Shown: positions 1-35,699 of the stretch, piece after piece
Layout: the number at the start of each line of letters is the position of its first letter
How positions within the stretch are numbered: the first letter of the stretch is position 1
Program-made: the position numbers and the translations under genes
Origin: Prorocentrum cordatum
Taxonomy: Eukaryota
DNA length: 54,423 bases
Direction of reading: 5' to 3'
Assembly: GCA_963575745.1 (NCBI GenBank)
Contig: CAUYUJ010000241.1
Coordinates: 62,001 to 116,423, forward strand
Notes under the pieces: generated by a model
The model's database searches: none
What the model was told of the DNA's origin: nothing
What the model saw: only the letters and a program-made list of their open reading frames with translations

Positions 1-181
1 GTGGCAGTCGTGGTCGGGCACATCTCGCTCAAGGTCTCCGTGGCGGACGAGAGAATATGTTGTTACTTGATCGGCTACGTCGTAGGGCCAGTTCCTGTTT
101 CTGTTCCTCCTCATCCTTCTCCACCTCCTCCTCCTTCCCATCCCCCACTCCTCCTCCTCCTCCTCCTCCTCCTCCTCCTCC

Positions 182-203
182 TCCGTAGCCATTTTGGCTC
201 AAG
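182..203 (+). other. Genomic copy of the dinoflagellate spliced leader (DinoSL) at the 5' end of LINE-A
   Basis: TCCGTAGCCATTTTGGCTCAAG is an exact match to the DCCGTAGCCATTTTGGCTCAAG consensus and directly follows a (CCT)n tract. Confidence 0.97.
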
Positions 204-345
204 GTTGAAACCTGCCCTGGGGCTTCAGCCTTGTCGCAGGCGACAGGGAGGCCCGAACCTTCCGAGGCCAGGACGCCTCTCTCCTTCCTGCCGTGCGCCA
301 CAGCACGCTCCCTGTTTTGGCTACAACGACGCGCGCTGAGCCGCC

Positions 346-1905
346 ATGGGCCCTGCCGCCTGCGACCGCCCGCACCATGTTGTACATCGTCTCGATGGTG
401 GTGAGGATGTTGATACGGAGATTGCTTCCTCTGGTGGCCGTGATTCCTCTGAGGAGCCCCGCCGCTCTGCCTCTCGGAGCGGTGGCAGCCGAGGTGCCCG
501 TCGTGCCGCTCGCACTCGGCCTCCCTCCCACGGCAACGCTGGTCCCGCCCTTGAGCCCTCTCGCCGTGCTCGCCGTGCTGGCCGCGCTCGTGGTGCTGGC
601 GGGGACGTCCCTGTGTCTCCTGGTGTTGCTGCCTCGCATCGGGGCCCCGACCCCGCGGCTCTGGGAGCATCTCGGGGTGCTCAGGCTATGCCCTTGGACG
701 AATGGGACGACACCAAGCGTGCACAAGTGGCTGCAGAACTCGAGATGGCTGCTACCTTCCCGTCGCAGGAGGCGCGGCCCGACCCGAATGCCACCCCGCA
801 GGGCCCTGCTGCTGGGCTCTTCGACCCCTGGGCCGCGGCGGCGGGGGCGGGCGCTGCCCCGCGGGCTCAGGCTGCTGCTTGTGGTGCTCCTGATTGTGGC
901 GAAGAGGAGGAGCATGCCGCCTTCACTCGGGCCTTCTACCATGCCGACATATCCGCGAGGTTCCTGCAGCTGCGCAATGAGTTCGACAATATCGTCACCA
1001 CGGCCATCACCAATTCTGTTCAGCAGTCTAACGCTCCCATCGTTGCCACGCTCGCCACACTTCAGAAGCAGCTCTCCTCGCAGCACACATCCATTGATCA
1101 GCAGGTCATGGCATCGGTACGTCCGCAGTTTGATTCCATGCAGCGCCAGTTTCAGGAGCAGCATGATGCCCTATGCCGTCGTGTCGACTACACTGAGCGG
1201 GACATCGAGGCCCAGGCTGCCAAACTGGCTGAGCTGCAGAAGCAGGTCGAGGAGCTACGCCGCCAGAATGAGTTGGATCGACAACTCCCGTCGCGTCCCC
1301 CTGCCCCTCCTGGTTTCGACCGCGAGATCGATCCGACGCAGGTCATTGTGGTCTCATCCAAGCTCGTCGGTTTGGCTGGCGTCCGTGAAGTGGTCAACTC
1401 CTTCTTGGGCGAGCTCAACTTCTCCGAGGACGACACGTACACGATCCAAGCACTCACGCCGCTCCCCGCCAAAAAGTTTGCCGTGTGCTTCTCTGGGCCG
1501 ATCGGGCTGGCTTCCCGACGTGTGCAAAAGGCCCTCGCTAACCTCAAGTCGGACGGAGCATGGCGGGTCTTTCAGTGCCCAGCTCAAGGTGCTGACCCAG
1601 CCCGTCTTCACTTTGGTCCTGACAAGTCGCCGAAACAAGTTCGTGGTGAGATGCTCCTTCGTAAGGTCCGCTCTTCCCTCATGGAGCTTGACAGTCAGAG
1701 AAAGTGGTTTGTCGATCGGGAGCGGGGTGTTCTTAAGTCTGACTACACCGACATCCTGCGTCTTGTCCCCCGGCCAGGCGATGAACCCCCTGAGCTCTCT
1801 TGGAACGACGTGGGGATCCGCGCCCTCGGCCTGGGCCGCCGTGACCCCCAGGATGCCATTCGGAACATCGCCACCGCGCCGACGGCCACCCAGTGGTGTC
1901 TTTAA
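346..1905 (+). CDS. LINE-A ORF1 (coiled-coil, putative nucleic-acid-binding protein), 519 aa
   Basis: First ATG after the SL, in GCCGCCATGG context. Heptad-like segment QRQFQEQHDALCRRVDYTERDIEAQAAKLAELQKQVEELRRQ. C-terminal part is homologous to the decayed ORF1 at 15230-15687. Confidence 0.82.
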   Translation: MGPAACDRPHHVVHRLDGGEDVDTEIASSGGRDSSEEPRRSASRSGGSRGARRAARTRPPSHGNAGPALEPSRRARRAGRARGAGGDVPVSPGVAASHRGPDPAALGASRGAQAMPLDEWDDTKRAQVAAELEMAATFPSQEARPDPNATPQGPAAGLFDPWAAAAGAGAAPRAQAAACGAPDCGEEEEHAAFTRAFYHADISARFLQLRNEFDNIVTTAITNSVQQSNAPIVATLATLQKQLSSQHTSIDQQVMASVRPQFDSMQRQFQEQHDALCRRVDYTERDIEAQAAKLAELQKQVEELRRQNELDRQLPSRPPAPPGFDREIDPTQVIVVSSKLVGLAGVREVVNSFLGELNFSEDDTYTIQALTPLPAKKFAVCFSGPIGLASRRVQKALANLKSDGAWRVFQCPAQGADPARLHFGPDKSPKQVRGEMLLRKVRSSLMELDSQRKWFVDRERGVLKSDYTDILRLVPRPGDEPPELSWNDVGIRALGLGRRDPQDAIRNIATAPTATQWCL

Positions 1906-4900
1906 CGCCATTACTGATCTATTTGTGCTTCCAGTGGGGCAGGTCGGCGGAGAGATCTCAGCCAGCCTCACATTCATGACTTGGAATGCACACGCTCTTC
2001 TCCAATTTGGTGGGGCGAAGGCCTCGCCCAAGCTATCTTATCTAAGTAAACTGCAACCTGGGCGATCCATCTTGGCTCTCCAAGAAGTGCATGCAGATCG
2101 ATTCGAGCTGAACGACTTTGTGGCAAGGCTTTCTTCCACGGCCATTGTCCACGGCAGCTTTTGTGAAGATGACGACGGCGAGGTTGTCCGCGGCTCTGGG
2201 GGAGTTGCAGTCATTCTTCCTCCTTTCTCATCTTCTTCGGTCAGTAGCTGCGCGGTGCCTCTGATCAGAGGCAGGGTGCTTCGTGTTGATGTGGCGCTTG
2301 GGCAGACACAGCTGGTGATCTTCAACGTTCACAATCACGGCCTGACCAAGGGGGAGGTACAATCTGTCTGTGAGCAGATCGATTGTGCGCTGCGTCGTGC
2401 TGCTGATGACCCACTCTCGTACTTTGTGGTTGTCTTGGGGGATCTCAACTACAGCTACGATTCTTCTCTTATCTTTCACCGACCTACTGGGGTGCAGAGG
2501 CAGCTGACACATGATCATAAAGTACATGCTCCAATCTGGGCGGCGACACTCGGCAAGATGATGGAGATTAACTCGGAGGCTGCGACTCACTTCTGCAAGT
2601 TCACCAACTCCATCAACATCATCGACCGCTTCTTCTGTTCTGCCACAGGCTGGATGATGTGCCAGCTCATGACTGAGGTTAACACTGTGGACACGCCTGA
2701 GCACCTGTGCTCCATGGGCATATCGGATCATGCTGCTCTCTCGATTCGGCTGCGTCTGCGAGGTGCGCGTCCTGCTGCTGAGCGACCCATCCCCAAGCAC
2801 ATATTCACCTCTGTTGAATTCCAGCGCCGACTCCGAGGAATGGTTGCTGATTGTAATGAGGATCTGCTCCGATGGGGTCCACCGGTGGCCACAGAGCACT
2901 ACAAGTACATGATGAAGGAGGCCGCCAGGGAGGCCCGCGACATCCTCTTCTTCTCGGCCCCTGACCTGCCTGGGACGTTACAGCTGGTTGCTCGTGGGAT
3001 AGCACGAGCGGTATGGCGTCAAGACGCTGCCCTTGCCCTCAGGCTCATCGAGACCTCCCAGCACGCCGCCGACGCCCTGGTGGTCGACAGCCAGGTCGTC
3101 TCGCTGCGCCACGCCCCGTCCTTCGAGCAGTGGGCTGCTGGAGTGCATCGGTTGGTCCTCGAAAAAGAGCTTGCTGCTGCTGCTGCCGATCGTGCTCCCT
3201 CAGGCTCCTCATCTGCCTGGCGGCCTCATTCGGCCACGCTCTTGGGAGCTATGGAGAGGAAGGCCTCAATATGGGCCCCGTTTTCGAAGCGCCTGATTCT
3301 GTCCGCGGTCAACACCCCTGAGGGCCCCATATCAGAGGTTCGGGAACGCACTGCGGCCCTGGCGGCCTACTGGACCCCTGTCTTCTCCAAGAAAGAGCCC
3401 CACCCTGTCATGACCCAGATGTACCTCGACAGGTTCCTCACCAAGGCCTCTGGCATCGACCTGCACTGTCCTCTGACCCCAGTGTTTCGTAAGGTTCTCA
3501 GGCGTGCTCGTCACTCTGCTCCTGGTGTCGACGGGCTGCCCTACGCTGCCTGGTCAGCATGTGACTATGGCGCCCAGCACCTGGCCAGAATGTTCGGATG
3601 GCTATGCCAAGGTCAGTCGTTGTTCGCCTCTGCCAGCGTCACCCTCCAGGCGTTCCTCCCCAAAGGTGCTGATGACTCTGATCTGCCGTCTGGGGTTTGT
3701 TCTCGGTCTCCCGATAAGATACGGGTTCTGGGGCTGCGTAACACCGACGTGAAGATTCTGAGCTCGGTCATGAATAGGGTCCTCGAGCCTGTTGTCCAAG
3801 CCGTTGCACCCGCTTCCCAGAGAGGCTTCATTAGAGGACGGAATTTTTGCTATAACGTGCTTGAGCTGGATGTCCACGCTCGACTTGCATCTCAACATCC
3901 CCTTGCTGTGCGTCGTTCCCCTGTCCTTGTCGGGTTCGACTACGGGCAGGCCTTCCCGAGCTTGTCGCAGTCCTTCCTGCTGCAACTATTGGGCTCCCTT
4001 GGGCTCCCTACCGAGATTCTTGCTTTCGTGGGATGGATGTATTTGGCTGTGGAAGGGGTGGTCCAGGATGGGGGATGCTACACGACCATCTTCTGGATCC
4101 GCTCGGGCATCATCCAAGGATGTGGCCTCTCGGGGTCTTTGTACGCTCTCGCCTCCTCCCCCATGCTGGCCGACCTCGAGCGGAGTATCGAGCAGCGTCA
4201 GCTGGGGATATGCCGTGCCTGTGCCGATGATCTAGGTGCTGTTCTGTATGAGCTTGCCTCTCTGCGCATCCTGGTGCGGGTCCTAGGTGTCATGGAAAAG
4301 ATTGCAGGCCTCAAGATTAAGATCAGCAAGTGCACCCTGGTCCCCCTCGTCGGCTGCATGACAGAAGCCCTGAAAACCATGACCCAGACCCAGCTGGCCT
4401 CCATCGCGAGTGGCTGGTCAGGCTTCGCTGTTGAGGGGTGGTTGCTTTATCTTGGGATGATCTTGGGCCCTGATGCGACGGTCGACATGAACTGGAGAGG
4501 CCCGCTCATGAAGGCACGTTCTCGCTCTCGGATGTTGGGGCGTGGGGTTGCGTCAGTCTGTACGAATTGTATCCTGTACCGCACGCGGGTTTACCCTTGT
4601 TTGGCGTATGTAGCCCAATTCCTCCCTATGCCCGAATGGTTCCTGCCCATTGAGCGTGGTGCTATCGCCCAAGTTCTTCGAGCTCCCCTCGGCCTCTTTT
4701 CGAACGAATCGATCCTGGAGCTCCCGGCCTGGGGTGGTCCTCAGATCCCATCGTGGGCTGCCCATACTACTGCTGCTCACCTACGTGCTGCTTTTCACAC
4801 CTTCCAGGGCTTTGAGGAATACTTACGGCTACTGCGACAAACGGCTTCGCTCTGGCACAGAGAAGTGGTGGAAGGGAAGTTTGATGCTATCCCCTTGGCT

Positions 4901-7708
4901 GCTATGGATCGCTCCCGCGTTTATCCAGCTTTCTGGAAATCCCCTGCGTTCGTCGAACACCTTGAGCTGGTCCATGTGAGGTCTCAGGAGCCCCTACTCG
5001 TCGCCGCTCGCTCTGCCATGCGTGAGGAAGCTCAGGTTACGACACGAAGGCCCAAGCTGCAGCGTGCGGCTGCCCGCTCGCTGGGTCAGAACATGTGTGC
5101 GCACAAACCTCTTCAGGCTATGCTGATTCGCCACTTAACCCCGTTGTTCACAGCTTACCTCCCCTTCCTCAACCTGATCCACTGGCCCGCTATTCAGGAG
5201 CTTCTGGCACTGGTTCCGCAAAGTTGGGCGATGGCTGCCTTACGGACTTGGGGGCATGGTTGGTTGACATCTCATAGGATTATCCACCCGAGGGGTAAAC
5301 TACGTTGTCGTTTCGGATGCCCTGGCCCTGATCGGCTGCAACATTATCTACGCTGCCCTAAATTATACCTGGCAGTCAGCAAAGGTCTACAGCGTGCCCT
5401 GCCTCGTCCCCTGGCTCAGCGTCTTGGCCTTACACACCCCCACCCTGACCACTTCGAAGCTCTCTATGTCTATTACCAGGTCTTCAACTATGCTCGGCAA
5501 GGTGCGCTAGTGTCGACTCCTCGTCAGTTGCGTGGCGATGTCGAGGCCGCTGTCCGCACCTCTCGTCTGGCCAGACCCTCAGCCAAGTTAAAACGGTGGG
5601 AACCTCCTCCTGCTGTCCAGACGATCCGCCGAAGGCAGCCTCAGAGGAATGTGCTCACCTCCTCGTCCACCTCCAGTTTGAGTTCTGACGCTGCGGCCCC
5701 CATCCCTAACCTGGTCCCACCCACTCCGTGTATCGACGATGTGAGACATAGCTCTGATGAAGTCGGCCAACCTGCTCCCCACCCAGAGCCGCCTGTGTCC
5801 CTGCCTGCTGGCGCTTTGGCTCAGTGCGAGGCCCTGCCCCCACGGCAGGGCGTCAACGTGCGGACGCCCGTTTCCGCCGCTACCTTGCCGCGACCTGCGG
5901 CATCCATGTTCGCGTGGCCGCTGGCCGCCACAGTGGTGCTCTCCGCGGTCCACGCAACGCCGATAGCTGTCCCAACCACTTGTGAGGCGGATGTTACGCG
6001 GCTTGAACGTGAATATCGTGCGACCATCAGTCGTGTCGAACGCCTTCGTGCTGGTGGGCTCCCTGTTCGAGAGGACCATGCTCTTCCTGAACAGTTGCGA
6101 TGTTTGGGCGATGCCACCACGTCGAAGTCGACGCCGTCACCTGGTTCTCCCTTCCTGTGCCTGGCGGGCCACCCACCTGCTTCCTCTGCGGAGCATGCAC
6201 CACCTGTTGTCTTCGGCGAACGTATTGCATCAAGGGCTACACGCTGGGTCTTGCGCCTGGATGACTCCGAGAGCGGCCGTGCCGACTGGTTGATGTGGTG
6301 CATCCTGTATGTGCGTGCAAAATTTGTTGCGAGGGAATGGGTGGATTCGTCTGGTTGGAGTGGTACGCTTGACGAGCTCGCTCGTCATATCTGCATGGTT
6401 GCCTGGGACACCTCTACCGAAGGGCGCCTCAATATCGTAGATTACTATCGGTGGCTGAATGACCCGAGTAACTCCTTGACGCGACACGGGCTCTGGGAAG
6501 AGATGGTGGATCGACATTTCCAGGCCCTTCGTGAGATCCGCAGAGAGATGAGGCAATACTTGGGACCCGCTGCGCCACACCGTGTTCGGGACTTCCTCGT
6601 GGACAGCAATGGAGACGAGGCCCTGCCCATCGCTGCTGCCAACGGGTCGGTGCACTATTTTGCCCCACTAGTCTCTGCAGTGGATCCTGATGATGGAGAT
6701 GCCGCCAACGGAGATGGAGACGTCGACCCTGCCTCTTTCCTCCTCCAGGTTTCGGTTGCAGGGTGCTCCTCGAGCCCTGCGGCCACTGGCGTTAGAACGC
6801 GGAGGTCGACCGCCTCTGTTGGAAATAACGGCTCTGGAGTAAGTTGCGAGCTTGCGTCTCGAGTTCGGAGGTCGACCGCCTCTGTTTTAAATAAGGGCTC
6901 TGGAGTAAGTTGCGAGCTTGTGTCTCGAGTTCGGAGGTCGACCGCCTCTGTTCTAAATAAGGGCTCTGGAGTAAGTTGCGAGGTCTCGTCTCATGTACGG
7001 TGGCCGACCGCCTCTGATGGAAATGAGGGCTCAGCCTTCGAGAGTTGCGCCGTCTTCGAGAGTTGCGCCGACGTCAAGTGTTGCGCGATCATGGTGAATT
7101 GCCCCGTCTTCGAGAGATGCGCCGTCATCGAGAGTGTCTCCGTCAACGAGAGTTGCGCCGTCTTCGAGGGTTGCACGCCATCATCGAGAGTTGCGCAGTC
7201 TCGGAGAGTTGCGCCGTCGTCACGAGTTTCGCCGACTTGGTCACGGATCGCTTCCCTCTTCGCTACTCTCCCGTGCTCGTCTTCCCCGACCTGGCCGAGT
7301 TCGACGGCTGCTGGCTCATCGATTGTCCCCTGTCCGACGTGGATGGCGGGACCCTCCTCCTCGATTTCGCCTCTGACGAGAATTTCGTCGTCAATGTCAT
7401 GCAGTGCTACTCCAACTTCTCCTATTGGCTTGAGTTCTGGTACAGGAGTTGGGGGCACCCTTAGATTGCCCCACATGTGTGAGTGCCGTCGGAAAAGGCC
7501 CCAGTCGCCCATTTTCCTTATCCGTTCTCTGCGCCTTGCCTCGATCCCCTCCTTCGTCCGCGCTCCCTCCTGCTCTCAGCATCCTCTGAATGTGAATGAT
7601 ATAAATTTGACGGCTATCCGCCGCGCATCGTGTCCTGCAGCTACGGCGGCCTCAGCTACAACAGCTTCGACAGGAGGCGTGCCCATGCTGCCTCAGGCGC
7701 CGTGCTAG
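377..7708 (+). CDS. LINE-A ORF2 polyprotein: AP endonuclease, reverse transcriptase, CCHC-like knuckle, long C-terminal extension (start uncertain: ATG 377 or 1976)
   Basis: APE motifs TWNAH, LQEVH, VLGDLN, IDRFF, SDHAAL. RT motifs SAPGVDG, QRGFIRGR, FDYGQAFPSL, GIIQGCGLSG, CADD, GLKIKISK, YLGM. Zn motif CRFGC-x8-H-x3-C. The frame is open from 293 to 7708. Confidence 0.92.
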   Translation: MLYIVSMVVRMLIRRLLPLVAVIPLRSPAALPLGAVAAEVPVVPLALGLPPTATLVPPLSPLAVLAVLAALVVLAGTSLCLLVLLPRIGAPTPRLWEHLGVLRLCPWTNGTTPSVHKWLQNSRWLLPSRRRRRGPTRMPPRRALLLGSSTPGPRRRGRALPRGLRLLLVVLLIVAKRRSMPPSLGPSTMPTYPRGSCSCAMSSTISSPRPSPILFSSLTLPSLPRSPHFRSSSPRSTHPLISRSWHRYVRSLIPCSASFRSSMMPYAVVSTTLSGTSRPRLPNWLSCRSRSRSYAARMSWIDNSRRVPLPLLVSTARSIRRRSLWSHPSSSVWLASVKWSTPSWASSTSPRTTRTRSKHSRRSPPKSLPCASLGRSGWLPDVCKRPSLTSSRTEHGGSFSAQLKVLTQPVFTLVLTSRRNKFVVRCSFVRSALPSWSLTVRESGLSIGSGVFLSLTTPTSCVLSPGQAMNPLSSLGTTWGSAPSAWAAVTPRMPFGTSPPRRRPPSGVFNAITDLFVLPVGQVGGEISASLTFMTWNAHALLQFGGAKASPKLSYLSKLQPGRSILALQEVHADRFELNDFVARLSSTAIVHGSFCEDDDGEVVRGSGGVAVILPPFSSSSVSSCAVPLIRGRVLRVDVALGQTQLVIFNVHNHGLTKGEVQSVCEQIDCALRRAADDPLSYFVVVLGDLNYSYDSSLIFHRPTGVQRQLTHDHKVHAPIWAATLGKMMEINSEAATHFCKFTNSINIIDRFFCSATGWMMCQLMTEVNTVDTPEHLCSMGISDHAALSIRLRLRGARPAAERPIPKHIFTSVEFQRRLRGMVADCNEDLLRWGPPVATEHYKYMMKEAAREARDILFFSAPDLPGTLQLVARGIARAVWRQDAALALRLIETSQHAADALVVDSQVVSLRHAPSFEQWAAGVHRLVLEKELAAAAADRAPSGSSSAWRPHSATLLGAMERKASIWAPFSKRLILSAVNTPEGPISEVRERTAALAAYWTPVFSKKEPHPVMTQMYLDRFLTKASGIDLHCPLTPVFRKVLRRARHSAPGVDGLPYAAWSACDYGAQHLARMFGWLCQGQSLFASASVTLQAFLPKGADDSDLPSGVCSRSPDKIRVLGLRNTDVKILSSVMNRVLEPVVQAVAPASQRGFIRGRNFCYNVLELDVHARLASQHPLAVRRSPVLVGFDYGQAFPSLSQSFLLQLLGSLGLPTEILAFVGWMYLAVEGVVQDGGCYTTIFWIRSGIIQGCGLSGSLYALASSPMLADLERSIEQRQLGICRACADDLGAVLYELASLRILVRVLGVMEKIAGLKIKISKCTLVPLVGCMTEALKTMTQTQLASIASGWSGFAVEGWLLYLGMILGPDATVDMNWRGPLMKARSRSRMLGRGVASVCTNCILYRTRVYPCLAYVAQFLPMPEWFLPIERGAIAQVLRAPLGLFSNESILELPAWGGPQIPSWAAHTTAAHLRAAFHTFQGFEEYLRLLRQTASLWHREVVEGKFDAIPLAAMDRSRVYPAFWKSPAFVEHLELVHVRSQEPLLVAARSAMREEAQVTTRRPKLQRAAARSLGQNMCAHKPLQAMLIRHLTPLFTAYLPFLNLIHWPAIQELLALVPQSWAMAALRTWGHGWLTSHRIIHPRGKLRCRFGCPGPDRLQHYLRCPKLYLAVSKGLQRALPRPLAQRLGLTHPHPDHFEALYVYYQVFNYARQGALVSTPRQLRGDVEAAVRTSRLARPSAKLKRWEPPPAVQTIRRRQPQRNVLTSSSTSSLSSDAAAPIPNLVPPTPCIDDVRHSSDEVGQPAPHPEPPVSLPAGALAQCEALPPRQGVNVRTPVSAATLPRPAASMFAWPLAATVVLSAVHATPIAVPTTCEADVTRLEREYRATISRVERLRAGGLPVREDHALPEQLRCLGDATTSKSTPSPGSPFLCLAGHPPASSAEHAPPVVFGERIASRATRWVLRLDDSESGRADWLMWCILYVRAKFVAREWVDSSGWSGTLDELARHICMVAWDTSTEGRLNIVDYYRWLNDPSNSLTRHGLWEEMVDRHFQALREIRREMRQYLGPAAPHRVRDFLVDSNGDEALPIAAANGSVHYFAPLVSAVDPDDGDAANGDGDVDPASFLLQVSVAGCSSSPAATGVRTRRSTASVGNNGSGVSCELASRVRRSTASVLNKGSGVSCELVSRVRRSTASVLNKGSGVSCEVSSHVRWPTASDGNEGSAFESCAVFESCADVKCCAIMVNCPVFERCAVIESVSVNESCAVFEGCTPSSRVAQSRRVAPSSRVSPTWSRIASLFATLPCSSSPTWPSSTAAGSSIVPCPTWMAGPSSSISPLTRISSSMSCSATPTSPIGLSSGTGVGGTLRLPHMCECRRKRPQSPIFLIRSLRLASIPSFVRAPSCSQHPLNVNDINLTAIRRASCPAATAASATTASTGGVPMLPQAPC
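6800..7031 (+). repeat. 66-bp in-frame tandem repeat (about 3.5 copies) in the LINE-A ORF2 tail
   Basis: CGGAGGTCGACCGCCTCTGTT...GGCTCTGGAGTAAGTTGCGAG starts at 6800, 6866, 6932 and (degenerate) 6998. Confidence 0.9.
7039..7235 (+). repeat. Degenerate 18-bp tandem repeat (CGAGAGTTGCGCCGTCTT)
   Basis: Repeated GAGAGTTGCGCCGTC units, translating as FESCAV-like repeats. Confidence 0.8.
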
Positions 7709-7919
7709 GCGCAGGGAGCTGACCTCTGGGTACGCTGGTCTCCTCCTCCTCCTCCTCCTCCTCCTCCTCCTCCTCCTCCTCCTCCTCCCGTTCCTCCCCC
7801 TCCTCCTCCTCCTCCTCCTCCTCCTCCTTCTCCTCGCCCCTCCTCCTCCTCTTCCTCCTCCTCCTCCTCCTCCTCCTCCTCGCCCCTCCTTCTCCTCCTC
7901 CTCCTCCCCCTCCTCCTCC

Positions 7920-7941
7920 TCCGAAGCCATTTTGGCTCAAG
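7920..7941 (+). other. DinoSL copy (1 mismatch)
   Basis: TCCGAAGCCATTTTGGCTCAAG, a T>A change at position 5, preceded by (CCT)n. Confidence 0.93.
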
Positions 7942-8482
7942 CGAGCCCGGCGGACGGGAGGCCCCCGCGGCGCGCGCCCGGGGCGGCGCTCGGGCGCGCA
8001 GGCGGCCATCATGGAACCGGAGGGTCGGCGCGCGCGGGCGGCCAGGTCGGCGCGGACCCTGGCCCGTCGCCTGCGGCGCCGGTGGCGTGCGGAGGCGGGG
8101 CCCACCCGGGCGGGGGCGCTGCGACGGCGCACAGGGCTGCTGCGCCGCTCGCTTGTGGCGCATTGGGCCCTTCGCGACAGGATCGGAGCGCGCATCCCTG
8201 CGATGGCTGGAGCTATACGTGCCTACGAGCCTTCTTGGCCTCGACGGTCAGCTGGATTACGCCTACGAGGACCTGCACCTTGGTGGCTGGGCACGTCACG
8301 CGCCTCCCCCTAAGGCTAGGTGAGCGGCCGCGCTGCCCCCGCTGGCAGTCCGCGCCCACGTCTTCGAGGACTTCAGGGGCAAGCTCTGCAGCGAGGGCTA
8401 CACTGGCGAGGCGGAGCAGAAGCCGCTGCGATGCCAGACGTCCAATGAGACGGCGACGGGCGAGCAGTACGAGGAGCTCTTC

Positions 8483-9364: not shown

Positions 9365-9549
9365 GCAGCAGGCGTATGGCGCTTGCAGTCGTAAAGGCCC
9401 CCCGGAGGGTCGTCGGATTATGTTTCCGTGTGCTGCTGGCGCGTTGTGGGGCGCAGCTTTCTTGAATGGCCGTTTGGGGGTCGTCGGATTTCGGCTCCGT
9501 GTTCGGTGCGGGGCAAGCTCTCAGACTTCCGCTGTCTTCAGCCTGATCG

Positions 9550-22240: not shown

Positions 22241-22382
22241 ACCGACACGTGTCGGGGTGAAACAGGGAGGAGTGACTTCTAAGGGAAAGGGGTAGAGGAG
22301 AAGGAGGCGGAGGAGCAGGAGGACAGGAGGAGGCATATGAGAAGGAGGAAAAGGAGGAGGAGGAGGACAGGAGGAGGCAACG

Positions 22383-23046: not shown

Positions 23047-23078
<32 letters not shown>

Positions 23079-24820: not shown

Positions 24821-24823
24821 CGC

Positions 24824-24919
<96 letters not shown>

Positions 24920-24920
24920 C

Positions 24921-24985
<65 letters not shown>

Positions 24986-26357: not shown

Positions 26358-26427
<70 letters not shown>

Positions 26428-28024: not shown

Positions 28025-28061
28025 TCCGTAGCCATTTTGGCTCAAGCCATTTTGGCTCAAG
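28025..28061 (+). other. Full DinoSL (28025-28046) plus 15-nt relict SL (28047-28061)
   Basis: TCCGTAGCCATTTTGGCTCAAG followed by CCATTTTGGCTCAAG. Confidence 0.97.
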
Positions 28062-28065
28062 ACCC

Positions 28066-31000
28066 ATGCTTTGGCGGGCTGAGCCCGCTCTGGCAAAAAC
28101 GGATACCGCTAGTCCGCGGCAGCAACCAACCTGTACGGAGGTCCCTCGGTCGAGGGGTTCGCGAGCCTCCAACATCCCAATCCTTGCTCTCGCGCCATGG
28201 CTCCGGCTGGCCCTGGTGAGTGGGAGCGCCGCCCGTGGGTTCAGTCATCCCGGCCCCGTCGCTGGGGGGGCACCATACCTGAGGGCGGGGGTTCGGCAGC
28301 CAAGTGGGAAAAATGGGACAGCCAGCGAGCCAAGCACGAGGAGGAATGGAAGACGGTGGCAGGTCCCAAAGGTGAAATTCTATGCCACCACTGCGGATGC
28401 CGTAAGAACTCAAAAGGATCGATGTGCTGCAAGCATTGTGGCCAAAAGCTCGGTACTCGTCCCCAACCACTTGATGACTCTGGGGCCCCCATGGCGTCGG
28501 ACGAGTCGGGGAAGGGAGCGAGCAAGGGAAAGAAAGGGTACAAAGGCGGCAAGGGAGATCTGTTCGGTGGCAAGGGCCCAGGCAACCTCTCCACGGCACT
28601 CCCTCCTGGACCTGTTCCCGAGATTCCCCAGGCCAAGGCCCTCGAATTACAGCGTCTGGCTCGTGAGGCTGGGGACGCTGTGGGGGCCGCGCGCTATGGA
28701 GCCCTGGCGCAGAGGGCGGCGCCGCCCCCGAAGCAGTCGGGGAGGCAGAGGCTCATTGCCGCAGAGCAGAAGCAGGAGAAGCTCGAGAAACGCCTCAACA
28801 GTGAGTTCGAGAAGCTGGAGCGCTGGCGTCGGGCGACAGATGAGCTGGCAGTCACGGTTGGGGCCCTGGCCGAGGAGCTGCAGGCTGCCGACGACGAGGT
28901 GGCAGCCGCCCTGGTGGAGCTCCAGAGCCAGCACAGAGGGCCACCAGCGACGGAGTCCAGCGGCCTGCCGAGCATCAGCCTGCGCAAGCTCATCGACGGT
29001 GAGATGGAGCTGGCCAGCCGTATTTCTTGTGACGATTTCATTGATGTTGAGGCTGTCAAGGGCAGCCACGAGGTGTCTGAAGAGGACCTACGAGAGCTCG
29101 AGGATCGCAAGAACAACGTGGCTAAGCAGATGCAAGAGGTGCTGGGATCGGTATTTCGCCAAGCTCTGGAGAAGGCCAATTCCGCCCAGGACCAGCACAA
29201 GGAGCACCTCAAACGACTCCAAGCGAAGCGACGACGCACTGCTGACGGTTGCCCTGGGGAACAAGCAGCCGCCACAGGTGGGATCGAGTCTGGACCAGGG
29301 GCCTCGCCAAGCCCAGAGACCGCGACAGCGAGCTCACCTGCCGAGGCGCCGGCTGATGCAGTTGGCAAGCCTGCCCCACAGTTGGACATTCGCTCTCGTG
29401 TCTCTGCTGACGTTGGTGTGCAGGCAGCAAAACGGTCGGGGCTTTAGCCACAGCGTGAGCTCGACACAAGTGGGGGCGACGTGGTCGAGTTCGGCTACTC
29501 CCTGTTCCTGGTCATCTCTCGGTGCCGTTCCTGAGAAGGCGGCCGCTAGCGTCCTCTCTCCTGAGAGGAGCAGCCTGAGTGAACCCGCCTGCCTCACGGC
29601 AGGTGCGAGTCCCAGGCGGGCAGCGGCGCTGGAGGAGCGTGCACTGACGGCGAAGTCGATTGCCACGAGCGCATCGTCGAGGCCGTCTTCTTCGGTTGAG
29701 CTGTCATCGTCGGTGTCGGGTACTCCCTGCGCTGCGGTGTCGCCGTCGGCTCCAGTGTCGGCGACTCCCTGGGCTGCGGTGTCGCCGTCGACTTCGTGGG
29801 TGGCGTCTACCCGTTTTGTCGGATTGGAGACCAGGTGCGCCTCGAGCCTGGTCTCCTCAGAGTTAAATTGCGAGGAAGAGTGGCCACGGGCTTCGGCGAC
29901 ATGTCAGAGCGCCGAGAACGTGACAGCCAGTCAGAACGTAGCCGTCAAGCCCAACCAGAGCTTGGCGGCCCTCTCGTCCAAACCTTTTGTTGCACGCAGT
30001 GAGGAAATTTCAGTGTCAGAACGCGACAGCCAGGCGCTCCTCGAACCTGGCTGTCTCAGAGTAGATTGCGAGAGCCCGTCGTTGGAGTCTGGCGTTAGAT
30101 CGCTAAATCCTGGGGGCAACCGATGCTCGGAGGAAGTGCCCAGCCAGGTTCAGTCGCCACTTGCTGAGTCTCGAGCCATGGGAGTCAGTGTTGAGCAACC
30201 TCAGGTGGAGTCTCAAGCAGCGCTGCAGCCGAAGCAGGTCATCTCATTGTTGGAAGGGCTCCCTCCTGAGGATCGCGGTGCCCTAGGTACGTTCAAAGTT
30301 GGCACTCTGAATGCGAATACTTGGCCAAGGGCTCGGAGCACCATGCCATGGATTGAGAAACAATGTCAGATGCCGCATGTGTTATGCATTCAGGAGACCG
30401 TGCTGGACCAGTCGGGGGAAGCAGGGGCCCATCAATGGACTCGCACTTGCTCTCGGAAGCTGGCGCTGGGAACTGCCAAGCGCACAGGAGAATCGGCCAG
30501 ATCTCTTTCAGCAGGAGTGGGTTTGTCAGCGGCCATTGGCATTGGGGTGGCCAAGCTCCAGGTTCCTGAGAGGTGGCAGCACCGTGTTGTGATGAGGCTC
30601 ATGACGGTTGGCGCTCACTCGTGGATCATCATCGGCTCAGTCTACGGCGTCGACTCGATCGGCCCCAAGGGCGAGAACCTGGAGCTGCTGGAGTTCCTCA
30701 GTGCCTTCCTGGGGGCGCAGCGTTTCCCTTTCCTGCTAGGAGGTGACTGGAACCTAGAACCTGAGGAGATCATGGAGCTAGGATGGCTGGACCTGGCAAC
30801 CGCCACCATCTTCGCACCTGGCCTCCCAACCTGCAATGGCAAGGAGTATGACTACTTCATTGGCTCCCAGGCTCTGGACGCCTTCCCCATGTCGGTGGAG
30901 GCCAGGGTGGACACGCCGATCTCGCCACACTGCTACGTCGAGATCAAGCTGGAGGGCCTCAGGGACGAGCCCTTTGTCTGGGTCGAGGCGCCCCCACGAG

Positions 31001-34000
31001 CCTTTCCTCTGGCCGACCAGGAGGCCAAGAGGAAAGCCAGGGAGAAGGCAAAGAGTGCCAAGGTGACCGATCTCACCTCGACCACGGAACCGCCTATGGT
31101 ACCTGTGCTTGACGAGTGGCAACTGGACGCCCCCGTGAACTCAGTCGAGGATGCGGCAGCGATGTGGTTCAAGGCGGCTGAGAAGTACCTGGTGCAGTTG
31201 TTCGAGATTCCGTTCTCGGACAGGAGGCTCTACGTTGGCAGGGAGAAGGGCGTGGTACTCAAGAAGAAGAGGCTGGTGGACTGTGCGAAGGCTATCCTAG
31301 AGCGCCACGACGAGTCGGACACCAGAGCTTGGCTGAGTGCCCTCAGGCTATGGGATGCCCTATGTGTGGCATCGTCAGCTCCGTCTGGTTCGAAAGCAGG
31401 CAGGCCAGAGCACTCCGCGAGGTGCGAGAGACAGCTGCTGGCCCTGAAGCTCCCTGAGGCCATCTCGGATTCCCCCTCCCTGCAGGCGAAGGATGTCCAG
31501 AAGTGGGTCGCCTTGGCCAAGAGAGGAGGTCAGTTGTCTGCCTGGTTTCGAACTGTTCTAGCGGAGGAGGTGGATGTGCGCAGACGCAAGGACTCACAGG
31601 CCAGGAGTAAGGCCTGGAGAGAGTTCGGCGACCTCGCAGCTGATGGCTCTGGCAGGCTAGCGCACGCGATTTCCAGGCCCAAGCTGTTGGAGGAGGCGCC
31701 CACGCTGGCCAAAGGCAAGCCCCATGGTCTGGTGGGAGCTGCTGCGATCACGGCGGTGCTGGAGGAATGGGAAGAGCTGTGGACCTCTGACGACAGGGCC
31801 CAGGAGGCAGCGCCGTCTGACTGGAGTTACCCGTGGAAGCTCGACCAGATCTCGGAGGACCAGATCGTCCAGGTCTGCCGCTCCTTTGGCTTTTCCACTG
31901 GTCTAGGCTGGGACAACTTTCACATGAGGTTGGTAAGCTTCCTGGATGGAGTGTTTGTTCGGAGGCTCCAAGAGATTATTTCAAGTTGGGAGCGCAATCC
32001 GCACTGTGAACGCATGTGGGTCACGATCAATGTATTTCTGCCTAAACCAGGAGGAGGTACACGCCCGATCGGGCTCCTTTGCTTCTGGGCGCGCATTTGG
32101 AGCAGATGCAGGAGGCAGTATGTCAAAGGTTGGGAGGCGTCGGTTGATGCGAAGTTTTTCTGGGGAAAGGATGCCACGACCAGTTGTGACAAAGCGGCGT
32201 ACGTACACAATATGCTTGCCTGCTACGCCAGAAGGAAGAGGCTGTCGGCCATAACTGTGTTCTATGACATCCGCAAGTTCTACGAGAATGTCAGTCATCA
32301 GCAGCTAAGAGAAGCAGCAGAGCACTACAGTTTCGACGGCGCCTTGCTGAAGGCGCTCTGCTGTCTGTATCGAGCGCCACGCCGTGCGCGCTGGACAGGA
32401 GGCACGAGCAGAGTCAGTTATCCGAATGGAACTATCGTGGCTGGCTGCAGTGCGGCAACGGGAGTGGCGAAACTGATGACCTTGTGCCTCCTCAAGCGCC
32501 TGGCTGAGGAGACGCCTCCGTGTCGTGCGTTGAATGTGGTGGACGATTTGACGACGCATACCATCGGAGGCCCAAGGACGGTTGTTGAGAACACGGTCAA
32601 GAGTTTCGAGATTGTCACCTCGGAGCTGGGCTCGAGGAAGTTGCCAATTAATTGGGACAAGACTAGATTCATGATGTCCGATCACTCCCAGCTGCCTGCG
32701 TTGGTACAGGATCCCAGGTGGAGGCTATCGGACGACAAGCTGGTCATCGCCCACCGCGACCTCGGCGGCGACTCGCTGGACGGCAGGGCGAGGCGAGTCG
32801 GCACGCAGGCGTCGAGAATTGAGGCCGCCCGCAGCACTGCAGTTGCCCTACGACAGCTGGGGCAGAGTGAAAAGCATAGTAGAGTTTATCGTGTGGGCGC
32901 GCTGGCTAAAGCTTCTTGGGGATCCCACATCTTGGGGATCCCGCCGACCACCCTCCATAAGCTTAGGGTCCAAGCTGCGAGATCCTGGGGCCCTCTTCTT
33001 CCTGGCACTTCCCTGGGCTTCAGGTTTCTTTCGGCCGCTCGCCTCTGGCTCAGGGACCCGCTTTTGGTGACGGTGACGTCGGCTGTAAAGGAATTCGTCA
33101 GCGTTTGGTGGGCCCGCTCGATTTCTAAACCAGTGTTGGAAGCTTGTGTCCAGGACGCCCTGGCGGTCCAGGGGAGTAGGGCCCCCTGGGGCCAAGTCCG
33201 CCAGCCTGTTGCTGCGCTTTTCCTGCAGCTTGCTCGGATCCGCTGGAGTTTCGATGTGTCTCGATTAGCCCTGGTTGACGACCTCAACCGTGTGTGGTCA
33301 ATTGATCGGTTTTCGCCCAAGTTTTTCACCCTTCTCCTGCGAGGCTCGGTCGTTCGGGCCATTGAGCGGGAGGAGCAGTTGAAACAATTTGATTTCGGGA
33401 TGTGGAGCGGCCCAGTGTTCTGGCAGCCCATTCATCAGCTTCTAGGGCGGAAATGTTCGGAGTCGTGGACGAAGTCGCACAAGGCAGCTCTTTCAGCTCT
33501 GTGTGCGAATGTGTACTGGTGCCAGCACAGAGTGTGCGAGCATAGTCCAGAGGCCCCTGACCAATGCCAGCTGTGCAGAGATGGTAGAGGCACGTTGTAC
33601 CATCGCAGGTTTCAGTGCGTTGCCTTCGCTCCCTGGCGGCGCGAGAACCTGGATCCCGTGGTTGCTAAGGCGGCTCGTGCGGTTGGCCATCTCCCCACTC
33701 CTGCTGGGGAACTTTTTAGCAGATGTCTTTTCCCCAACCCTGCGGCCTGGGTGGAGCGACCCCCCCGCGACCCGCAGGACCCGTGCACCAGGCACTTTCA
33801 GTGGCCTCAGGACGGCCCCTTGTTTATTCCTGAGGGGGCTCATGTGTTCACGGACGGGTCGGGCTTTGAAGGGGAGCTCACAGGACTCGGGACCGCGGGT
33901 TGGGCTGTTGTGGTGCTGGACAGGCAGGGTAGGACCCTCGCCGCCCTTTTTGGTGTCGTGCCGATCGGGGAAGCGCCTGGGCAACAGGCACGCGACGGCG

Positions 34001-35127
34001 AGGATTTCGCTGTGCTGATGCTCTCCCGCCGTTCGGTCCTCTCCTCAGGTGTCTCGCTTCATGTGGACTGTGCGGCCACGGTCGGTTGCCTTCGAAACCT
34101 CGCGGGGGCAGCTGGTGCGTCGTCGGCCCGAGCCCACTGGTGGGCTGAGATTGGGGACCGTTTGGAGGGCTTGGCAGTGCATCAGATCCCGTCTCACTCG
34201 TCGATGGTTGATGTTAGGGAAGGCCGTATCACTGAAATGCAGCGTTTCGGGAACTCGGAGGCGGACAGACTCGCCAAGGAAGGAGCTGAGCCATTCCGAA
34301 TTTCGATTGAGGACCGCCAATTTGTGACTGGATATGCAGAGCTTGTCCGACGTGTCGGGCTGTACAGTGCCAGGCAGCAGGCTGAGTGTAGGGATTTGGC
34401 CCTGAACGATCATCAAGGGTTGGAATGGCTCGGCTACGTCCTCCTGGATGCGGTCCCTGGCTTCCCCCTTCCTGGTTCGGACCCTGGGGGTGGTGAGCCA
34501 AGTGCGCCTAGCGGTGTGCCTCAGGTTGCGCCTGGTGCGGGGGAAGCCCCTGGCGAGGCCCCTGGCGCGGTATCCGGTGAGCCGCCTCCCGAGAACCCCC
34601 CGACCCCAGGAGCATGGCTCCAGCTGGGGCACTCCCTTGAGCAGGGGGTGGTATATGAGTCGGATGGCTGCACGTATCACGATACGATGCTGTGTTGCAC
34701 GGCTTGTGGTGCAATGGCACATTCCAGCACGAAACGGGGGAATCTTCGGTTGAGGTGTCGTCCGGTCGCGTCTGGGGGACGGGGGTTTTACCTCGACCGA
34801 TTTCGTGCTGGAAGATATCCTGCCCATAGGAATCCTAAAGGGCTCACTATGGCGTACACGGGTGCCCCCTCTCTTGAGGTTCGCTCGGAGTGGAGGCCCT
34901 TCTTTGAGGCCTGGTCCCAGGGCCGCGACCGCCCTCCGAGAATAGCTCGGGGTGCCCAGCCCTCGCGCCGCGAGGGTCCCGCTGCCGACCGTGCGCGAGG
35001 CCTCGCCATGCTCGGCCTGACGCGGGCGGAGGTCGTGGAGCTGGGGGCCGAGGTCGAGGCCAGGCGCTGGAGAGGCGTTCTTCCCGAGGAGGAGGAGGAT
35101 CTCTTCGGCTGCCTAGGCCCCTCCTAA
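28066..35127 (+). CDS. LINE-B ORF2 polyprotein: APE, RT, CCHC, RNase H, C-terminal Cys/His domain (start uncertain)
   Basis: APE TLNANTW, IQET, SVYG, GGDWN, YDYF, SPH. RT LPKPGGGTRPIGL, YDIRKFYE, IVAGCS, VVDD. CQLC-x8-H-x4-C. RNase H FTDGS, DGE, VDC, PSH, GNSEADRLAK. Tail GHSL...CTACG...C. Confidence 0.92.
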   Translation: MLWRAEPALAKTDTASPRQQPTCTEVPRSRGSRASNIPILALAPWLRLALVSGSAARGFSHPGPVAGGAPYLRAGVRQPSGKNGTASEPSTRRNGRRWQVPKVKFYATTADAVRTQKDRCAASIVAKSSVLVPNHLMTLGPPWRRTSRGRERARERKGTKAAREICSVARAQATSPRHSLLDLFPRFPRPRPSNYSVWLVRLGTLWGPRAMEPWRRGRRRPRSSRGGRGSLPQSRSRRSSRNASTVSSRSWSAGVGRQMSWQSRLGPWPRSCRLPTTRWQPPWWSSRASTEGHQRRSPAACRASACASSSTVRWSWPAVFLVTISLMLRLSRAATRCLKRTYESSRIARTTWLSRCKRCWDRYFAKLWRRPIPPRTSTRSTSNDSKRSDDALLTVALGNKQPPQVGSSLDQGPRQAQRPRQRAHLPRRRLMQLASLPHSWTFALVSLLTLVCRQQNGRGFSHSVSSTQVGATWSSSATPCSWSSLGAVPEKAAASVLSPERSSLSEPACLTAGASPRRAAALEERALTAKSIATSASSRPSSSVELSSSVSGTPCAAVSPSAPVSATPWAAVSPSTSWVASTRFVGLETRCASSLVSSELNCEEEWPRASATCQSAENVTASQNVAVKPNQSLAALSSKPFVARSEEISVSERDSQALLEPGCLRVDCESPSLESGVRSLNPGGNRCSEEVPSQVQSPLAESRAMGVSVEQPQVESQAALQPKQVISLLEGLPPEDRGALGTFKVGTLNANTWPRARSTMPWIEKQCQMPHVLCIQETVLDQSGEAGAHQWTRTCSRKLALGTAKRTGESARSLSAGVGLSAAIGIGVAKLQVPERWQHRVVMRLMTVGAHSWIIIGSVYGVDSIGPKGENLELLEFLSAFLGAQRFPFLLGGDWNLEPEEIMELGWLDLATATIFAPGLPTCNGKEYDYFIGSQALDAFPMSVEARVDTPISPHCYVEIKLEGLRDEPFVWVEAPPRAFPLADQEAKRKAREKAKSAKVTDLTSTTEPPMVPVLDEWQLDAPVNSVEDAAAMWFKAAEKYLVQLFEIPFSDRRLYVGREKGVVLKKKRLVDCAKAILERHDESDTRAWLSALRLWDALCVASSAPSGSKAGRPEHSARCERQLLALKLPEAISDSPSLQAKDVQKWVALAKRGGQLSAWFRTVLAEEVDVRRRKDSQARSKAWREFGDLAADGSGRLAHAISRPKLLEEAPTLAKGKPHGLVGAAAITAVLEEWEELWTSDDRAQEAAPSDWSYPWKLDQISEDQIVQVCRSFGFSTGLGWDNFHMRLVSFLDGVFVRRLQEIISSWERNPHCERMWVTINVFLPKPGGGTRPIGLLCFWARIWSRCRRQYVKGWEASVDAKFFWGKDATTSCDKAAYVHNMLACYARRKRLSAITVFYDIRKFYENVSHQQLREAAEHYSFDGALLKALCCLYRAPRRARWTGGTSRVSYPNGTIVAGCSAATGVAKLMTLCLLKRLAEETPPCRALNVVDDLTTHTIGGPRTVVENTVKSFEIVTSELGSRKLPINWDKTRFMMSDHSQLPALVQDPRWRLSDDKLVIAHRDLGGDSLDGRARRVGTQASRIEAARSTAVALRQLGQSEKHSRVYRVGALAKASWGSHILGIPPTTLHKLRVQAARSWGPLLPGTSLGFRFLSAARLWLRDPLLVTVTSAVKEFVSVWWARSISKPVLEACVQDALAVQGSRAPWGQVRQPVAALFLQLARIRWSFDVSRLALVDDLNRVWSIDRFSPKFFTLLLRGSVVRAIEREEQLKQFDFGMWSGPVFWQPIHQLLGRKCSESWTKSHKAALSALCANVYWCQHRVCEHSPEAPDQCQLCRDGRGTLYHRRFQCVAFAPWRRENLDPVVAKAARAVGHLPTPAGELFSRCLFPNPAAWVERPPRDPQDPCTRHFQWPQDGPLFIPEGAHVFTDGSGFEGELTGLGTAGWAVVVLDRQGRTLAALFGVVPIGEAPGQQARDGEDFAVLMLSRRSVLSSGVSLHVDCAATVGCLRNLAGAAGASSARAHWWAEIGDRLEGLAVHQIPSHSSMVDVREGRITEMQRFGNSEADRLAKEGAEPFRISIEDRQFVTGYAELVRRVGLYSARQQAECRDLALNDHQGLEWLGYVLLDAVPGFPLPGSDPGGGEPSAPSGVPQVAPGAGEAPGEAPGAVSGEPPPENPPTPGAWLQLGHSLEQGVVYESDGCTYHDTMLCCTACGAMAHSSTKRGNLRLRCRPVASGGRGFYLDRFRAGRYPAHRNPKGLTMAYTGAPSLEVRSEWRPFFEAWSQGRDRPPRIARGAQPSRREGPAADRARGLAMLGLTRAEVVELGAEVEARRWRGVLPEEEEDLFGCLGPS
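28197..29447 (+). CDS. LINE-B ORF1 (C4 zinc finger and coiled coil), 416 aa
   Basis: ATG in GCGCCATGG context. CHHCG-x9-CCKHCG zinc finger, GK-rich segment, long coiled-coil-like region. Confidence 0.85.
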   Translation: MAPAGPGEWERRPWVQSSRPRRWGGTIPEGGGSAAKWEKWDSQRAKHEEEWKTVAGPKGEILCHHCGCRKNSKGSMCCKHCGQKLGTRPQPLDDSGAPMASDESGKGASKGKKGYKGGKGDLFGGKGPGNLSTALPPGPVPEIPQAKALELQRLAREAGDAVGAARYGALAQRAAPPPKQSGRQRLIAAEQKQEKLEKRLNSEFEKLERWRRATDELAVTVGALAEELQAADDEVAAALVELQSQHRGPPATESSGLPSISLRKLIDGEMELASRISCDDFIDVEAVKGSHEVSEEDLRELEDRKNNVAKQMQEVLGSVFRQALEKANSAQDQHKEHLKRLQAKRRRTADGCPGEQAAATGGIESGPGASPSPETATASSPAEAPADAVGKPAPQLDIRSRVSADVGVQAAKRSGL

Positions 35128-35699
35128 CTTGTTTGTTTTTTGTTGCATGCGAATTGGGTCACTCCCTTCGTGGTCGCGGGCGTCCTCCTCCTCCCGGTCT
35201 TTCTCCTCCTCCTCCCTCCCTTCCTCCTCCCCCTCCTCCTCCGCCTCCTCCTCCTGGTCTTTCTCCTCCGTCCTCCTCCTCGTTGTCCTCCTCATCCTTG
35301 TCCTCATCATCTCCCTGAAGATTGGCTGCGCTGCTAGGGTCGATCCTCATCATCTCTCCTCCTTCTTCTTCTCCTCCTCCTCCTCCACAACTACACAATA
35401 TGAATACTGCTCTCCTCTCCTCCTCCTTCTCCTCCTTCTCCTTCTCCTCTCCTCCTCCTCCTCCTCCTCTCGTCCTCCTCTCCTCTCCTCTCCTCTTTCT
35501 CCTCTTTCTCCTCCTCCTCCTCCTCTTCCTCCTTCTCCTCTTTCTCCTCCTCCTCCTCCTCCTCCTCCTCCACAATTACACAATCTGAATACTACTCTCC
35601 TCTCTCCCCGGATGACGTCCTGGAAGATCTTCGGCTCCCCTCCGCGTGCTTAACAAAACATAAAAAAGGACTCCCGAGAGTTGGGTTTTAGCTTGGGCT

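Follow-up and report, generated by a model that had tools for sequence, protein, structure and literature searches.

Retrogenes that carry the dinoflagellate spliced leader (SL, or DinoSL) are very numerous in dinoflagellate genomes, and they are accounted for by the mRNA-recycling model of Slamovits and Keeling (2008), as given in PMC5585692 and PMC12014239. In the first of these articles, functions related to reverse transcriptase (RT) are reported as enriched among the DinoSL-tagged retrogenes, a T-rich motif of the leader is proposed as a promoter, and the mediating enzyme is said to be unknown. In the second, the retrogenes are put down to retrotransposons in general terms, and the long interspersed nuclear elements (LINEs) of the best-studied family, the Symbiodiniaceae, have been called old and inactive (PMC10235124). 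Here we describe a 54,423-nt stretch of the genome of Prorocentrum cordatum (contig CAUYUJ010000241.1, positions 62,001 to 116,423), referred to at its full length as the window, in which intact LINEs themselves begin with the DinoSL and sit inside arrays of the repeated trinucleotide CCT, (CCT)n. We consider it probable that this region is a nest of non-LTR retrotransposons (LTR, long terminal repeat) and their passengers, placed within (CCT)n in one fixed orientation, with trans-spliced LINE RNAs serving as templates and the repeat serving as integration target.

In the accessible literature, the supplements of PMC5585692 and PMC12014239 aside (these may list tagged genes encoding RT), we found no description of LINEs beginning with the DinoSL, or of retrocopies residing inside microsatellites or other tandem repeats. 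With the SL-tagged retrogenes of dinoflagellates, the units in the window share a genome-encoded DinoSL at the 5' boundary, a relict of the leader that starts from the base after an internal AG, and, as we infer, the retroposition of a trans-spliced RNA that was spliced again. They differ in being intact autonomous LINEs and not host genes, in lacking poly(A), and in being located inside tandem repeats.

Among animals, microsatellite-specific non-LTR retrotransposons are known, for example as families of the R1, R4, and Tx1 groups. These have in common with the units described here one simple repeat on both sides, a fixed strand orientation, and the presence of several units per repeat type, whereas the elements in question are dinoflagellate LINEs with an endonuclease of the apurinic/apyrimidinic endonuclease (APE) type, with or without RNase H, their 5' end is the SL, the motif varies among relatives, (CCT)n versus (AG)n, and their specificity is read from the flanks. 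Another parallel is presented by the LINEs of trypanosomatids and nematodes that reside within SL RNA genes and whose endonuclease is restriction-like. There, too, a LINE is tied to the SL sequence in a trans-splicing organism, but the sites in the window hold no SL RNA gene, the LINEs have an APE-type endonuclease, and the SL would have been gained by RNA processing. R2-type elements are transcribed together with rRNA, from which a self-cleaving ribozyme frees them. If our interpretation holds, the window LINEs would be alike in being promoter-less, in being read within a longer transcript, and in obtaining their unit-length 5' end by RNA processing, but they would rely on host trans-splicing, which adds a cap-bearing leader, and not on a ribozyme of the element. 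From the published record, twister ribozymes are described in schistosome non-LTR retrotransposition (PMC8501958), many site-specific non-LTR elements are described as targeting microsatellites (PMC4640811), and the L1Tc/ingi elements of trypanosomatids are described as carrying an internal Pr77 promoter and producing unspliced transcripts (PMC1874656; PMC8190864). The latter resemble the window LINEs in belonging to an organism with general SL trans-splicing, while the window LINEs carry the leader in their DNA copies.

Leader-headed units in (CCT)n

Exact or near-exact matches to the 21-mer DinoSL occur in the window on the plus strand only, at positions 183-203 (no mismatches), 7921-7941 (one mismatch), and 28026-28046 (no mismatches). 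The base preceding all three is a T, resulting in the 22-nt form, and 0 of 100 shuffled sequences contained any match. Each of these sites is the 5' end of a plus-strand unit, respectively LINE-A (182..7739, with the leader at 182..203), a non-autonomous retrocopy of 1.6 kb (7920..9549, with the leader at 7920-7941), and LINE-B (28025..35182). In LINE-B, the leader (28025-28046) is directly followed by an exact 15-nt relict (28047-28061) that corresponds to the SL from its 7th base to its end, the two together occupying 28025..28061. As judged from Tandem Repeats Finder (TRF) and from the sequence, plus-strand (CCT)n lies directly 5' of each SL (105-184, 7740-7922, and 27927-28023). The three units end, without an A-run, at 7739, 9549, and 35182, and (CTC/TCC)n begins at the very next base (7740-7922, 9550-9981, and 35183-35298), the array between LINE-A and the retrocopy being the 3' flank of the former and the 5' flank of the latter.

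The 18 nt upstream of the SL sites score 18/18, 17/18, and 16/18 for the CCT repeat (at least 16 at 3/3 sites), while CCT-like 18-mers, defined by a match of at least 15/18 to the CCT repeat, account for 3.8% of the plus-strand positions and 2.3% of the minus-strand positions of the window. Because of this low background and of the scores at all three sites, the SL-(CCT)n layout is considered real and not a product of chance. The first-pass annotation of this DNA had proposed that three units begin at the DinoSL and that each is flanked on both sides by (CCT)n on the sense strand and lacks poly(A); the former is borne out for 3/3 units by the sequence scan, and the latter by TRF along with the sequence.

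Adjacency to (CCT)n is also seen in elements not possessing the SL. Six elements, LINE-A, the retrocopy, LINE-B, and three more without an SL (LINE-C and two copies of element D, D1 and D2, described below), have (CCT)n next to their 3' end, with CCT being the sense on their own strand and with both strands of the window represented; the repeat is found on both sides of LINE-A, the retrocopy, and LINE-B, and on the 3' side of LINE-C, D1, and D2. Poly(A) is absent at the 3' end of every unit in the window, the 3' ends running into (CCT)n, and no sequence common to the six 3' ends was found besides the repeat. LINE-A and element D resemble each other over 10 nt at their ends (8/10), which was judged too weak for a shared 3' end. 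Self-BLAST of the window detected no direct repeats at element ends other than CCT and the SL, which means that there are no long terminal repeats.

LINE-A qualifies as an intact non-LTR retrotransposon by its SL, open reading frames (ORFs), Pfam domains, and junctions, with a 5' untranslated region (UTR) of 142 nt, a 3'UTR of 31 nt, and no poly(A). Its ORF1 (346..1905, plus strand, 519 aa) matches no Pfam family and is homologous to the N-terminal parts of P. cordatum LINE-like proteins. ORF2 (1958..7708, plus strand), whose frame is open from 293 and whose homology begins near 1958, encodes a predicted APE at approximately 1976-2665 (Pfam Exo_endo_phos, E 2e-5, 24.8 bits versus a cut-off of 24.5) and a predicted RT at approximately 3710-4342 (Pfam RVT_1, E 6e-13), with a match to the human L1 ORF2p (E 5e-9). 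The nearest named relatives are P. cordatum proteins of 33-44% identity that span both ORF1 and ORF2. The C-terminal part of ORF2 (6800-7238) contains two in-frame repeats, one of 66 bp in 3.5 copies and one of 18 bp in 11 copies.

LINE-B is likewise an intact non-LTR retrotransposon, with a 5'UTR of 135 nt, a 3'UTR of 55 nt, and no poly(A). Its ORF1 (28197-29447) encodes 416 aa and its ORF2 frame is open to 35127, with APE assigned to approximately 30340-30870, RT to approximately 32041-32676 (Pfam RVT_1, E 1.4e-11), a CCHC motif, and RNase H assigned to approximately 33841-34287. A PDB sequence search with LINE-B returned none or one weak match. BLASTP comparison of LINE-A with LINE-B gave no similarity in either ORF1 or ORF2, and by their sequences the two elements are unrelated to each other. 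In both, the ORF2 frame is open across the whole of ORF1 and upstream of it (293-1905 and 27964-29447), ORF1 and ORF2 being one frame apart, and this may reflect composition or overlapping reading. The retrocopy, which ends without poly(A), carries an ORF (8576-9364) with a PHD-like end that is sub-threshold, and no relatives of this ORF were found among proteins of 190 to 606 aa.

The junctions in LINE-B were compared with data from elsewhere by matching the stretch 27600-35400 with contigs of four public sequencing runs (their listed type being DNA or unknown). In one run (X1), 558 contigs matched, of which 197 showed at least 99% identity, 153 showed 95-99%, and 208 showed 90-95%, and because of this spread LINE-B is regarded, at the sequence level, as a family with several diverged copies. 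Contigs from two other runs (X4 and X6) present CCT-type letters, followed by one SL and by the LINE-B 5'UTR, with no relict, their flanks showing 10-14 letters that differ between the runs. The family therefore has members with 0 and with 1 relict, with the same junction between the SL and the 5'UTR in both, and many contigs share the SL or the relict and then diverge, pointing to many other SL-headed units in these runs. Short-read contigs do break in CCT arrays, and among the contigs listed none spans the whole stretch or bridges the arrays, so one may suspect that the CCT-SL junctions are an artefact of assembly or result from chance. This is extremely improbable, given the shuffling control, the X4 and X6 contigs, which evidently confirm the CCT-SL-LINE-B junction apart from the assembly of the window, and the occurrence of the same architecture in unrelated public contigs.

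Leader-headed units in public collections

The exact SL was scanned for in three public collections, of viral contigs, metagenome contigs, and prokaryote genome bins (genome_contigs). The metagenome scan produced at least 126 loci with at least 137 distinct SL sites, most of the contigs being 1-3 kb in size, and the matches listed, to which the metagenome counts that follow refer, include SL RNA genes, AT-rich sites, and at least 69 nuclear sites of the retrocopy kind. A short-period repeat adjoins 13 of the 65 retrocopy-kind SL sites with at least 12 nt upstream, compared to 6.3% of bases located in repeats and to 0/29 SL RNA genes; by a stricter repeat test, the figures are 5/63 SL sites versus 1.0%. 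A repeat also adjoins a further 6 of the 38 sites binned as AT-rich, several in this bin being (TA)-rich nuclear sites by eye. The motifs in these flanks are (CACCA)n, (GGGT)n, (GTA)n, (CAT)n, (TG)n, (AC)n, (CT)n, and an 11-mer, and the same repeat is found on both sides of three retrocopies, the 11-mer in L171 and (AC)n, after a run of five A, in L185 and L189. The prokaryote genome bins contained 20 contaminant SL sites, and 4 of the 12 evaluable sites outside SL genes adjoin (GTGTGC)n, (CAT)n, (AG)n, or (GACA)n, by eye.

One especially complete example is presented by L258, a contig of 9.1 kb holding an intact SL-headed APE-RT-RNase H LINE of 8.9 kb. The order is (AGAGAGAC/AG)n, the SL, an ORF1 of 373 aa, an ORF2 frame of 2535 aa, a short A run, and (AG)n, with purine as the sense strand of the repeat. 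All the Pfam domains are above the cut-off (APE, 5e-9; RT, 5e-11; RNase H, 1.2e-5, with 25.9 bits versus 25.8), and the element is distantly related to LINE-B (26% identity in the RT, E 6e-14). Another example is L156, the 5' end of a LINE, in which 13 copies of a 21-mer repeat are followed by the SL and then by an ORF1 that is homologous to the N-terminal part of a LINE-A-like protein of P. cordatum (E 4e-14). The same 21-mer also precedes the SL-headed units of L125 and L163, contigs with similar names. By sequence, SL-headed LINEs in tandem repeats are not peculiar to the window, and the motif differs between sources: it is (CCT)n in the window, (AG)n in L258, the 21-mer satellite in L156, and (AC)n or the 11-mer in other retrocopies.

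This variation bears directly on the model put forward in the first-pass annotation, in which the LINEs are promoter-less and the (CCT)n target doubles as the polypyrimidine tract for the AGs of the integrated SL, thereby coupling target choice to expression. The window itself lends the model some credence: at 3/3 sites the internal AG of the SL lies no more than 4 nt from (CCT)n, similar to the context of a 3' splice site, the LINE-B relict implies that the internal AG was used at least one time in the lineage, the sense strand is the pyrimidine strand in 3/3 SL-headed units, and CCT-type sequence also precedes the single-SL ends of LINE-B in X4 and X6. However, (CCT)n equally adjoins the 3' end of LINE-C and also D1 and D2, none of which has an SL, along with the 3' side of every unit, the intact SL-headed relative of LINE-B in L258 sits in (AG)n on the sense strand, and other SL-headed units are found behind (AC)n, (TG)n, (CAT)n, (GGGT)n, (GACA)n, the 11-mer, and the 21-mer. 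As the motif varies, (CCT)n is not required as a splicing signal. Over the 30 nt upstream of 63 genome-encoded SLs, the mean pyrimidine fraction is 0.512, with only 2/63 reaching 0.8 or more, and use of the AG next to the tract in each cycle would pile up relicts, while 0, 0, and 1 are observed in the three units. The coupling of target choice to expression is weakened by these data, and the model in its entirety appears unlikely to us; splicing in this genome may benefit from (CCT)n, yet target choice is left unexplained by it.

The same diversity of flanks can be interpreted in another way, that the repeats are not recognized by the elements at all, and that fragile or structure-forming DNA captures cDNAs of any RNA at breaks, without a specific cut. 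The very different motifs across contigs, the 11-mer and the palindromic 21-mer included, would fit such a process, as would the sharing of (CCT)n in the window by two LINEs with unrelated proteins. What capture at breaks does not predict is a fixed orientation, and yet CCT is the sense strand in 6/6 of the window elements and likewise in the X4 and X6 copies. One type of repeat also serves several units per source (three units in (CCT)n; L125, L156, and L163 behind one 21-mer), and long arrays of (TCA)n, (TGATGA)n, (CGT)n, and (CTA)n are present in the window without any SL-headed unit. We regard capture of this kind as quite improbable.

The data on the SL RNA genes address yet another scenario, in which the elements are LINEs inserting into these genes, and the SL belongs to the target gene instead of the element RNA. 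An SL does mark the edge of the elements, and the next two bases in LINE-A are GT. On the other hand, in the SL RNA genes recovered in the scan the SL gives way to a conserved intron that terminates in a T-run, and 0/29 of these genes adjoin a repeat. The SLs in the window are preceded by (CCT)n and followed by a LINE 5'UTR and ORF1, with no insertion into an SL RNA gene, Rfam gives 0 matches in the window, and the endonuclease is of the APE type. The probability of this scenario appears negligible.

Trans-spliced templates and renewal of the 5' end

As the copies start at the first base of the SL, and as the SL ends exactly at the splice site, the RNA templates of the SL-headed copies evidently were trans-spliced RNAs, carrying the leader. 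Acquisition of the SL through template switching onto SL RNA was considered and rejected by reasoning, as it would bring along the SL intron. The SL and the relict of LINE-B, in turn, are best read as the product of trans-splicing at the AG that follows the 6th base of a genome-encoded SL, and therefore at least one ancestor of LINE-B must have been transcribed from upstream of its own SL and spliced again. The idea of the first-pass annotation, that trans-splicing renews the 5' end of these elements, gains from this, with at least one event recorded in the DNA as the LINE-B relict, and the single-SL ends of LINE-B in two runs fit the use of the terminal AG.

A cycle of the following kind would connect these observations. 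The RNA of a LINE would be processed like any dinoflagellate mRNA, with a leader trans-spliced to its 5' end, and reverse transcription proceeding to the very end of this RNA would write the leader into each full-length copy. The AG acceptor sites of the integrated leader would then allow a read-through copy to be trans-spliced anew, use of the terminal AG leading to exact renewal with a single SL, and use of the internal AG leading to the SL with a relict. What such elements would need is read-through from upstream and not an internal start, and the mRNA-recycling model proposed for the retrogenes would be extended to the autonomous elements themselves. Integration would be target-primed at the repeat, either through a preference of the endonuclease or through annealing of a repeat at the 3' end of the RNA to the nicked repeat. 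Annealing would fit the (CCT)n cases, whose 3'UTRs are very short and which lack poly(A); where (AC)n or (AG)n is preceded by a short A run, a poly(A) end may have paired minimally with primers that contain T.

The need for read-through from upstream would be removed if the integrated SL acted as a basal promoter via its T-rich motif, with transcription starting from within or just behind the leader. Such a promoter has been proposed for DinoSL relicts (PMC5585692), and it would explain why few units bear more than one relict (0, 0, and 1). However, a transcript starting in or after the SL would be devoid of the SL AGs and of the branch region, and a leader could not be regained at exactly the same base, yet the LINE-B junction is preserved in members with 0 and with 1 relict, and the relict itself requires a transcript that begun upstream of the SL. 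We therefore see transcription from the leader as a very unlikely source of these RNAs, and continue to favor trans-splicing of read-through transcripts.

A number of points weigh against this preferred interpretation. Transcription, read-through, and re-splicing of the copies are deduced from DNA. As a target-site duplication is unrecognizable inside a repeat, target-primed integration is a deduction as well. With (CCT)n on both sides, a pre-existing (CCT)n target is not separable from a 3' repeat tail that was borne by an element and drew later insertions. The window holds three SL sites, in at most two or three independent arrays, and among the metagenome matches listed 52/65 of the SL-headed retrocopies adjoin no repeat, meaning that repeat targeting is not universal. 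In the window copy of LINE-B, the match to APE (E 0.0054, 16.9 bits) is under the Pfam cut-off, and so is the match to RNase_H (E 0.1, 13.2 bits versus a cut-off of 25.8), although the latter spans positions 5-140 of the 141 in the model. Relatives back both assignments: PF03372 is present in four relatives of LINE-B (P0012, P0014, P0015, and P0016), the L258 element aligns over the APE part (E 4e-8), and the CCHC motif is kept in five aligned relatives, along with invariant D, E, D, H, and D columns of the RNase H part, which we take to be the RNase H catalytic set. Of the two intact LINE types originally called in the window, APE-RT and APE-RT-RNase H, the RT of both and the APE of LINE-A are upheld, while the APE and the RNase H of LINE-B remain below the cut-off in the copy itself and draw their support from the relatives.

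Since the neighboring passenger unit possesses the same junctions, the LINEs are likely the machinery behind the SL-tagged retrogenes, as far as can be told from shared sequence features. Intact LINEs that share the tag and the junctions with a neighboring passenger copy would link the machinery to its products, and they provide a retrotransposon in which formation and renewal of the 5' end by host trans-splicing can be put to the test. Tandem repeats as preferred landing sites would also matter for the growth of the very large, repeat-rich genomes of dinoflagellates. It is possible, though we hold it to be doubtful, that the scheme extends much further: promoter-less LINEs would ride on read-through transcripts, host trans-splicing would cut and cap unit-length RNA at the SL AGs of the copies, the repeat at the 3' end of the RNA would guide cDNA into like tandem repeats, and the same elements would have made thousands of SL-tagged retrogenes and may have spread lineage-specific simple repeats.

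Other elements and minor observations

LINE-C (15307..20032, plus strand) is a decayed, frameshifted relative of LINE-A without an SL (24-34% amino acid identity by tblastn), with an ORF1-like part at 15307-15684, APE at 15923-17518, and RT at 17681-18648. It ends at 20032 without poly(A), with plus-strand (CCT)n following at 20033-20158 (TRF and sequence; 18/18). Where it begins is uncertain, and a short patch rich in CCT at 14540-14585 may be a truncated 5' junction of this element. Element D is a non-autonomous repeat with internal 83-bp tandem units, present as two copies on the minus strand, both without an SL and yet adjoining (CCT)n. These are D1 (21721..22290), with a (CCT)n end at 21766-21721 and (CTC)n upstream at 22758-22295, and D2 (48666..49460), with a minus-strand (CCT)n end at 48771-48666.

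The proposal that LINE-B lies in an intron of a host gene of the same orientation finds no support, as the space between the units is occupied by LINE-C and by the minus-strand repeat. A Pfam search for a host gene, covering 128 ORFs from 1-28 kb and 97 ORFs from 35-54 kb, revealed no credible domain outside the elements, and the few matches there correspond to low-complexity ORFs encoded by repeats. Two other features are seen in this part of the window. A 187-bp stretch is found at 10254-10439 and again, 78% identical, at 20342-20527, approximately 270 and 180 bp past the (CCT)n arrays at the 3' ends of the retrocopy and LINE-C, respectively, and it may represent a further family of repeats or an array flank that was duplicated. 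A run of approximately 24 G is located at 10980-11003, after a C-rich stretch and near an (AGG)n array.

The SL scan of the viral contigs detected no LINE, and almost only AT-rich, giant-virus-like contigs, and no relatives of the ORF2 of LINE-A or LINE-B were found in this collection. The contigs from giant-virus metagenome-assembled genomes (MAGs; L001-L119, for example L011, L020, L051, and L106, and also L121, L137, and L166 from the metagenomes) have a GC content of 17-24% and possess many exact genome-encoded DinoSLs on both strands, each positioned approximately 45 nt past a conserved AT-rich, promoter-like motif and before a gene. From this arrangement, giant viruses seem to hard-code the leader of the host at the 5' ends of their mRNAs. 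The accessible literature mentions the DinoSL on an RNA virus, and no hard-coded SL in giant viruses was found there. L192, a metagenome contig of 10.3 kb (66% GC) with two SLs located 7.3 kb apart, was considered as a LINE and ruled out, as it contains an ORF for a giant-virus major capsid protein (Pfam E 5e-17); by this content, it may be an endogenized or a GC-rich viral element that uses the DinoSL. In L253, a 209-kb contig of a bacterial MAG bin, an SL at approximately 9980-10045 has the same 19 letters on both sides, and its sequence resembles either an insertion of the leader alone, accompanied by a target duplication, or a retrocopy that landed beside the sequence it derives from.

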